From a virus: a stretch of DNA of 14,066 nucleotides. The notes beneath the pieces are model-generated. The model saw nothing but the letters and a program-made list of their open reading frames with translations. It was not told where the DNA came from and did no database searches. The position numbers were made by a program, and so were the translations under genes. The stretch's first letter is position 1; each line of letters starts with the position of its first letter. Positions 13,643-14,066 of the stretch are shown piece after piece. The stretch lies in UHGV virus genome UHGV-0237147; one strand, 5' to 3'.

Positions 13643-14066
13643 TTAGGAATTATCGGCACGGGTTTTGACATCTTTTTTCACCTTTTTTGTTCGGGGCAGG
13701 TCACCCGCAATCCAGGCAATCACGCTGTGTATGAATGATATTTCAGAATCATCATTACGTCCCAGAGCGATGCAGGTTCGCTTAAATGCAGCATCTTGCA
13801 GCGACCGCCAAGGGTTACTGTCGGCATCCTGGATCTTCAGATATCTGGCTCTTAGTTCATCATCAGGAAGAATTGAGAATTCAACAAGTAAACGCTTGTA
13901 TTGCCTCATTTGCTCCTTAGATAACCCCGCTTCTTGCCCAAATTGATAAACCAGCTGAAGTACAGACAGAACGGCAACAGAAACACCAAAAATAAACATA
14001 TTGCTGAATGGAGCAAAGACAGAAAAGCCCAAGACGATAAGGATAAGGGTAATGCTTTTATCTATT
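13643..14066 (-). CDS. Membrane protein of unknown function, 5'-truncated by the window edge (open reading frame continues past 14066); candidate superinfection-exclusion-type protein by position next to cI
   Basis: Reading frame stays open to the window end; two N-terminal TM segments (ITLILIVLGFSVFAPF, MFIFGVSVAVLSVLQLVY) followed by a soluble charged domain; convergent with cI. Function is inference only. Confidence 0.5.
   Translation of the reverse strand, partial: IDKSITLILIVLGFSVFAPFSNMFIFGVSVAVLSVLQLVYQFGQEAGLSKEQMRQYKRLLVEFSILPDDELRARYLKIQDADSNPWRSLQDAAFKRTCIALGRNDDSEISFIHSVIAWIAGDLPRTKKVKKDVKTRADNS

Follow-up and report, generated by a model that had tools for sequence, protein, structure and literature searches.

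SieB aborts the lytic growth of superinfecting phage, with self-immunity provided by Esc and the sas antisense RNA (PMC12197685, PMC7067206). The sieB gene of phage P22 is under the control of antisense RNA (PMC12197685), and in Salmonella prophages, accessory genes that lie antisense to lytic genes were found to be expressed in the lysogen (PMC7067206). Here we describe a different gene in the sieB position. It lies at 13643..14066 (minus strand), at the end of a 14,066-nucleotide stretch of the virus genome UHGV-0237147 (the window), and encodes a protein of 166 amino acids with two transmembrane helices. Together with flanking micro-ORFs (short open reading frames), this main gene forms a cassette: a conserved accessory ("moron") unit in the sieB slot of a lambdoid prophage without N.

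The cassette recalls other described systems as well. RexB, too, is a prophage-encoded, lysogen-expressed membrane component of an abortive-infection system near cI. Proline-rich leader and arrest peptides, and polyproline stalling motifs that depend on elongation factor P (EF-P), likewise involve short open reading frames (ORFs) with Pro-Pro motifs that are coupled to a regulated gene directly downstream. SLATT domain proteins, said to have been described by Burroughs et al. in 2015, reportedly serve as effectors of DRT10, DRT3, and SMODS/SLOG systems. They are predicted to form pores as effectors in conflict systems, and those studied so far act with a partner enzyme, for example DRT10 (doi 10.64898/2026.04.29.721553).

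A conserved gene for a membrane protein

The region 13643-14066 is a genuine conserved gene. Read inward from the window edge (14065), the frame holds 141 codons without an in-frame stop and closes with a TAA at 13645-13643. A prophage of Escherichia coli strain 1943 (L001) carries an identical copy at 12363-12786, matching at 424 of 424 nucleotides; there the full-length coding sequence has 166 codons and is annotated as a hypothetical protein, WP_048217444.1. The window therefore holds codons 26-166 and the stop, and the first 25 codons, the ribosome-binding site, and the putative promoter lie outside it. A first-pass annotation of the window had already taken the gene to be 5'-incomplete, with a promoter beyond the window, and the L001 copy, which supplies the upstream sequence, agrees with this.

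Close relatives form 75 clusters (54-99% identity), all from Enterobacterales, in a word-indexed search. A profile search of 1.84 billion representatives (50% identity) extends the family to 231 clusters at E≤1e-3, nearly all of them stand-alone proteins of 150-180 amino acids. The main protein matches PHROG 6315, whose function is unknown, at 6.5e-51. Distant homologues, at 22-36% identity, are found in Fels-2, a Yersinia phage, Serratia, and Providencia. The Fels-2 homologue (L002, NC_010463; 4977-5435, plus strand) is 36% identical, is unannotated, and has an upstream micro-ORF of its own. In its place, NC_010463 lists STM2733.1, a probably spurious ORF that overlaps the homologue on the other strand; the record for Yersinia phage vB_YenM_42.18 has the same annotation problem.

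The protein begins with an amphipathic helix of 29 residues, just four of which are encoded inside the window. Two hydrophobic segments follow, residues 30-46 and 49-67 (17-19 residues long; Kyte-Doolittle 17-mer maxima of 2.31 and 2.39), joined by a linker of two residues, Ser-Asn. The C-terminal 99 residues include 18 Lys plus Arg and 15 Asp plus Glu. The AlphaFold2 model, with a mean predicted local distance difference test score (pLDDT) of 77.6, places helices at residues 3-43, 47-90, 94-105, 114-127, and 137-145, and the tail is disordered. The two long helices, 3-43 and 47-90, pair as a hairpin, and the three short helices come after it.

This model predicts a tight transmembrane helical hairpin whose N- and C-terminal parts are helical. 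Because the turn is only two residues long, almost none of the protein would be exposed to the periplasm; the basic residues that flank both ends predict that these face the cytoplasm. The first-pass annotation had described two N-terminal transmembrane helices and a charged soluble domain. The helices and the charged C-terminal part stand, but the helices do not begin at the N-terminus itself: the 29-residue amphipathic helix precedes them.

The sieB slot

The main gene is convergent with cI, which encodes a repressor of the LexA/S24 family on the opposite strand (12654..13280, plus strand), as the first pass had seen. Operators of the form CTAAG-N4-CTTAG (at most one mismatch) occur three times in the window, and likewise three times in the 24.8 kb of L001. 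Of these, two belong to OR, between cro and cI (12566, 12615), and the third, the OL operator (CTAAGTTAAGTTAG, 13347..13360), directly follows cI; a weaker copy is at 13311-13324. A candidate PL promoter (TTGATC, 17 nucleotides, TAGATT; 13335..13363, plus strand), read from the sequence, overlaps the third operator and points away from cI. It matches the consensus at 8 of 12 positions and falls under the threshold of the promoter scan. Since OL and PL stand between cI and the main gene, the early-left transcript (start near 13370, plus strand) has the cassette in its path and must cross it antisense to reach rdgC and the rest of the early-left genes.

The first-pass annotation had called this position equivalent to both rex and sieB. 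In the lambda record, sieB (plus strand) comes immediately after N among the minus-strand PL genes, and rexAB lie between cI and OL, co-oriented and co-transcribed with cI. The main gene, in contrast, is on the strand opposite to cI and beyond OL, so the equivalence to rex falls. That to sieB holds: the gene lies beyond OL and PL, is antisense in the early-left operon, and has an upstream block in common with lambda sieB.

Six lambdoid lineages show a single order, in which gaps set off the oppositely oriented cassette from the early-left genes on one side and from cI, and then cro, on the other. Among loci from IMG/VR, 43 of 53 have an S24 repressor gene related to the cI of the window, convergent and 250-800 bp downstream; in none of the 53 is it co-oriented. 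The homologue in P2-like prophages shares the orientation of the repressor and integrase genes and is antisense to the early lytic operon, within which it lies. The constant feature across lambdoid and P2-like contexts is therefore an orientation that opposes early lytic transcription.

The upstream block, never annotated, is about 100 nucleotides long (L001 12950-13075, minus strand, outside the window; lambda 34395-34480) and has the sequence GTGCCTG(T)CTTTTAACCACATCAGGCnCGGTGG...TATTCCCCAACAACAAGGATTCGGTTAATCTGGATAYCCCCAACAAC. It is conserved above the level of coding sequence across 13 diverse loci and carries two CCCCAACAACA(N0-3)AGGA repeats and a GCCTG..CAGGC hairpin; RNAalifold finds one small hairpin only, with one compensatory change. 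The same block precedes lambda sieB and five further cargo genes, and each time the first ATG comes about 20-25 nucleotides later. Because this block is shared, the likeness to the slot of lambda sieB is more than an analogy.

The cargo varies. The "ECs1072 family" gene of E. coli ML35 and Shigella phage SfIV (PHROG 5286; L013 3397-3831 and L015 3329-3763, both minus strand) encodes a soluble protein of 144 amino acids whose function is unknown. Other block-bearing genes encode proteins of 167 amino acids (E. coli DETEC-S586), 171 amino acids (a Rac-like prophage of E. coli SRCC 1675), and 170 amino acids (E. coli CFT073), which are unrelated to each other and to the main-gene family. In Enterobacter hormaechei, the first half of the block is copied in front of a zinc-ribbon gene. 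(Other slot cargo was also considered as homologous to the main gene, and rejected at 12-20% identity.) Among 5426 complete E. coli genomes, 1549 (about 29%) carry the block and one carries the main gene, so that the slot behaves as a hotspot of variable cargo with a shared control region.

A perfect inverted repeat of 14 nucleotides brackets the cassette (left arm AATCTGGATACCCC, 13480..13493; right arm L001 12968-12981, outside the window); chance alone would give about 0.01 such pairs in the region. Five other lambdoid loci keep both arms on either side of the cassette, and in ML35 and SfIV the arms enclose the ECs1072-family cargo, so the repeat belongs to the slot. It may form a long-range stem in the RNA of either transcript, or be the footprint of recombination.

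The cassette ends in an intrinsic terminator (AAGCGTCCGATGGGCGCTT then TTTTGTTGCC; 13440..13468, minus strand; L001 12188-12170, 8 pairs), and the loci of E. hormaechei and Klebsiella conserve it. It thus has the traits of a moron: a terminator of its own, divergent GC content (41.9% for the main gene versus 49.6% for the prophage), and an orientation against the operon in all lambdoid contexts.

Flanking micropeptides

At first pass the locus had been read as a single gene. It is instead a cassette with conserved micro-ORFs for peptides rich in His and Pro, ordered on the minus strand as follows: the block of about 100 nucleotides; a micro-ORF of 24 amino acids; the 166-amino-acid gene; one to three further micro-ORFs; and the intrinsic terminator.

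The upstream micro-ORF lies outside the window and encodes, at the reference locus, MQYLDYEEKHMPVQQRPPAPPKED. It ends 7-21 nucleotides before the main ATG in every lambdoid lineage examined, and its stop overlaps the main ribosome-binding site (...GAC TGA GGTG...ATG). It is found in 60 of 61 analysable IMG/VR loci. Across five lineages, synonymous divergence in its core is near-saturated (0.7-1.0) and non-synonymous divergence is 0.08-0.33; by codon position, the variable columns number 7, 7, and 17 of 18. Such coding-type selection is comparative evidence that the micro-ORF is translated.

Comparable upstream peptides also precede the homologues of 22-36% identity. Those of Fels-2, the Yersinia phage vB_YenM_42.18, and a Serratia P2-like prophage contain a core of His, a hydrophobic residue, and Pro; in the lambdoid Providencia phage PSTNGR2lys, the core is NH-L-N-P and a run of prolines comes after it.

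Downstream of the main gene lie one to three paralogous micro-ORFs, two of them inside the window. Micro-ORF 1 (13600..13671, minus strand; MSKPVPIIPNHRPPKPRPPAPKG, then stop) shares its first part, in another frame, with the 3' tail of the main ORF, which is not conserved. In all six lineages it has a Shine-Dalgarno sequence of the AAGG type 7-10 nucleotides upstream. Its core is PxHxPPxPRPPA, and its variable columns by codon position are 5, 6, and 12 of 12. In Pectobacterium (P0021) the micro-ORF 1 peptide is fused in frame to the membrane protein. Micro-ORF 2 (13509..13589, minus strand; MDHSSPHPDRHGHVPTQPRPPAPPSK, then stop) has weaker support than micro-ORF 1 and a less clear ribosome-binding site. 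Other loci encode paralogous downstream peptides, such as MDNFAQDHDKQWHVPPKPRPPSPPKK, and at least one H.PP micro-ORF lies downstream of the main gene in 29 of 33 distinct IMG/VR locus types.

The micropeptide consensus is about x-H-hydrophobic-P-P-K/R-P-R-P-P-A-P-K, and a scan of the micropeptides against PHROGs returned no family. Other cargo genes of the slot lack such micro-ORFs, so the micro-ORFs go with the main gene and not with the slot.

The non-conserved tail of the main ORF also contains, in frame, a dnaX-type slippery heptamer, A AAA AAG (13682-13688, minus strand). A -1 frameshift there was considered as a link to micro-ORF 1 and rejected: the slip enters a different frame and yields only a short alternative tail.

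A distant likeness to SLATT proteins

By itself, the main protein has no significant match in Pfam or NCBIfam. A SLATT signal emerged solely through scans of many family members and of their consensus. Among 119 diverse members scanned against NCBIfam, SLATT_4 was matched by 50 (best 2.2e-5), SLATT_1 by 15, TIGR04402 by nine, and SLATT_fungal by three; unrelated families were each matched by at most three. The family consensus matches SLATT_4 (NF033632) at E=2e-5 with 24.5 bits, for a curated cut-off of 55, and also SLATT_1 (7e-4), TIGR04402 (0.014), and SLATT_5 (0.022), in consistent register.

Structural comparison points the same way in one search. Foldseek against BFVD, a set of predicted viral structures, placed SLATT proteins on top at probabilities of 0.9-1.0, with E-values of just 0.04-0.3; searches of solved structures in the PDB returned nothing specific, only generic helical hairpins. 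A few family members carry the UniRef name "SLATT domain-containing".

In the AlphaFold2 model and hydrophobicity profile, the main protein has a SLATT-type architecture: two transmembrane helices flanked by N- and C-terminal helices, predicted to be cytoplasmic. The likeness to SLATT proteins thus comprises two transmembrane helices within a helical bundle and matches to four models that agree in register. The difference is that these matches are all sub-threshold, and that the accompanying genes are micropeptides, not enzymes. No SMODS, SLOG, TIR, reverse transcriptase, or nucleotidyltransferase partner or fusion was found in any context examined, nor was any enzyme or sensor gene that travels with the main gene. 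The main protein is therefore best called SLATT-like: it is a distant, sub-threshold relative, not a demonstrated member of the superfamily.

The homology check called for by the first-pass annotation, which had raised exclusion systems such as RexAB and SieB, thus yields a PHROG of unknown function and weak SLATT similarity, with no match to SieB, RexB, or PADLOC. The Pfam models recovered their own positive controls (lambda SieB against PF14163, 9.9e-30; RexB against PF15968, 8.5e-92). The main protein does not match PF15968, its architecture is unlike that of RexB, and neither a RexA-like sensor nor a second large gene was found in the cassette.

What the cassette might do

The cassette may be a lysogen-made, membrane-acting module for superinfection exclusion or abortive infection, with peptides as partners; we consider this reading about evenly balanced between right and wrong. 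The cassette would be made in the lysogen from its own promoter or control region. The main protein would permeabilise the membrane and so abort or exclude a superinfecting phage, as an analogue, not a homologue, of SieB and RexB. The co-translated peptides would regulate or partner it, for instance as labile inhibitors or translation-dependent gates, and antisense transcription from PL would damp the cassette during the prophage's own lytic growth.

A number of results weigh against such a module. The main protein matches no family in PADLOC-DB v2, even at E≤10, and has no experimentally characterised homologue. The gene is rare: a single genome among the 5426 complete E. coli genomes carries it. 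A consensus scan found no sigma-70 promoter upstream of the cassette, and expression in the lysogen is an assumption. No SLATT match reaches a curated threshold, and Pfam's own SLATT models (SLATT_4 and SLATT_fungal) give faint matches, to two of the 119 members each. Unlike the SLATT effectors studied so far, the locus lacks a partner enzyme. Finally, labile inhibitory peptides predict self-killing upon induction, unless antisense control or timing averts it.

A broader proposal joins these elements. A stand-alone SLATT-like pore gated by coupled micropeptides would be a new immunity module, and the sieB slot would be an uncatalogued, widespread hotspot, marked by a portable block and minable for defence genes. 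The peptides might be labile inhibitors, or polyproline sensors of translation disturbed by phage; the unit might be kept together from lambdoid to P2-like prophages, and the slot cargo might comprise many unrelated lysogen-expressed genes of unknown function. Taken whole, this proposal is tentative, and we hold it to be rather unlikely.

The peptides admit other explanations. They could be purely cis-acting leader or arrest peptides, in which polyproline stalling sets translation or the fate of the mRNA, and the membrane protein could then be a lysogenic-conversion factor outside defence, serving for example envelope or stress physiology. Like arrest peptides, the upstream micro-ORF is short, has Pro-Pro motifs, and is coupled to the main gene. 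Every micropeptide has at least two such motifs near its stop; a ribosome stalled on the upstream ORF, whose stop is 7-21 nucleotides before the main ATG, would cover the main ribosome-binding site; and the conserved block with its two CCCCAACAACA..AGGA repeats lies just upstream. However, the paralogous downstream micro-ORFs are followed only by the terminator and so cannot gate translation of the main gene. Stalling alone also leaves unexplained the conservation beyond the prolines, in the His-hydrophobic-Pro core and the charged ends, and the in-frame fusion in P0021 suggests that the peptides act at the protein level. We regard this explanation as unlikely. The same fusion, the several paralogous peptide copies, and a gene order like that of type II toxin-antitoxin systems, in which a small ORF comes first and its stop overlaps the downstream ribosome-binding site, would also suit an addiction module or a membrane toxin that modulates lysis, either of them in the service of prophage maintenance or timing and not of defence. 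The two-helix protein would be the toxin, which its hairpin without an exposed periplasmic part would allow, and the Pro-rich peptides short-lived antitoxins. The many unrelated cargo genes of the sieB slot, though, fit diversifying accessory or defence functions, and we think a toxin-antitoxin role distinctly improbable as the explanation, although it and abortive infection are compatible and not mutually exclusive.

It might also be that the main protein is an extremely diverged but true member of the SieB family, acting as SieB does. The two share the slot (counter-oriented near the start of the PL operon and convergent with cI), and their upstream blocks are homologous. Both are small inner-membrane proteins with two hydrophobic segments near the N-terminus and then a charged soluble part of about 100 amino acids; and just as P22 sieB is under antisense RNA, the PL transcript is necessarily antisense to the cassette here. 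There is, however, no detectable sequence relationship: neither the main protein nor any of the family members scanned (32 plus 119) matches Pfam SieB (PF14163) at E≤10, and hhalign of the family profile against lambda SieB, represented by that single sequence, gives a probability of 0.35%. The loop between the helices is two residues, versus about 15 in lambda SieB. Lambda sieB has no His/Pro-rich micro-ORFs upstream, and no Esc-type internal start is documented for the main gene. Moreover, the cargo genes are mutually unrelated, so a shared slot does not imply homology. Common descent with SieB is accordingly a very remote prospect, and the exclusion or abortive-infection module with peptide partners is the reading that we carry forward.

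The early-left leader and other features of the window

Shortly after the candidate PL, the early-left (PL) transcript has a conserved leader (13372..13507, plus strand), antisense to the cassette and running towards it. This leader, strongly conserved and unannotated, was found in 54 phage records (among them ST64B, SfII, SfIV, SfV, mEp460, mEp237, ZF40, and phiNP) and in 1411 of the 5426 E. coli genomes. It lies after a promoter in three immunity types: at the PL-equivalent place, SfIV has TTGACA-N16-CATAAT with operators of its own, and in the Klebsiella and Enterobacter loci the promoter is TTGACT-N16-TAATAT and the operators are GTAAG-N4-CTTAC. A hairpin in the leader covaries (CCGGT..ACCGG versus CCTGG..CCAGG, a compensatory change), and a second hairpin after it is the terminator on the opposite strand.

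The prophage locus has no N homologue. Put-like RNA antitermination has been proposed for an N-less relative of mEp460 (PMC12315714), and the leader might act in cis as a put-type antiterminator RNA, because the phages that carry it lack N. Its alignment with HK022 putL shows only vague similarity, thermodynamic folds are unremarkable (z -0.5 to +0.1), and a scan of the whole window at Rfam gathering thresholds returned no family. In ST64B, the noncoding RNA STnc1310 is reported to adjoin CI (PMC7067206); it may equal the leader, as a candidate correspondence only.

Elsewhere in the window, two ORFs with hydrophobic segments (4222-4800, 192 amino acids, and 4826-5251, 141 amino acids, both minus strand) lie between a Q-like antiterminator gene (5397-5975) and the holin gene (3727-4122), a classic site of accessory genes. 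The corresponding place in the E. coli 1943 prophage holds just one gene, of 243 bp. At the left end of the window, an ORF of 178 amino acids (299-835, plus strand) has an N-terminus like a signal peptide and opposes the neighbouring minus-strand genes; because of this orientation it may be another accessory gene.

Perspective

The cassette is an element of a known kind, a prophage accessory cassette with a membrane effector in the sieB position. Within the libraries and literature searched, and as far as found, the family itself, its stand-alone SLATT-like nature, and its conserved micropeptide partners are new. The same holds for the recognition that the slot is tagged by a shared upstream block in about 29% of the complete E. 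coli genomes.

Should the cassette prove to be a defence module, it would represent a minimal effector at the membrane that needs no enzymatic sensor, and SLATT-type domains would gain a stand-alone role, with micropeptide regulators or partners that current annotation misses. Whatever the function of the cargo, the lambda-sieB-homologous slot and its block, in about 1500 E. coli genomes, provide a handle for finding prophage accessory and defence genes. They also open the way to study how genes are regulated by antisense early transcription and a shared control region.

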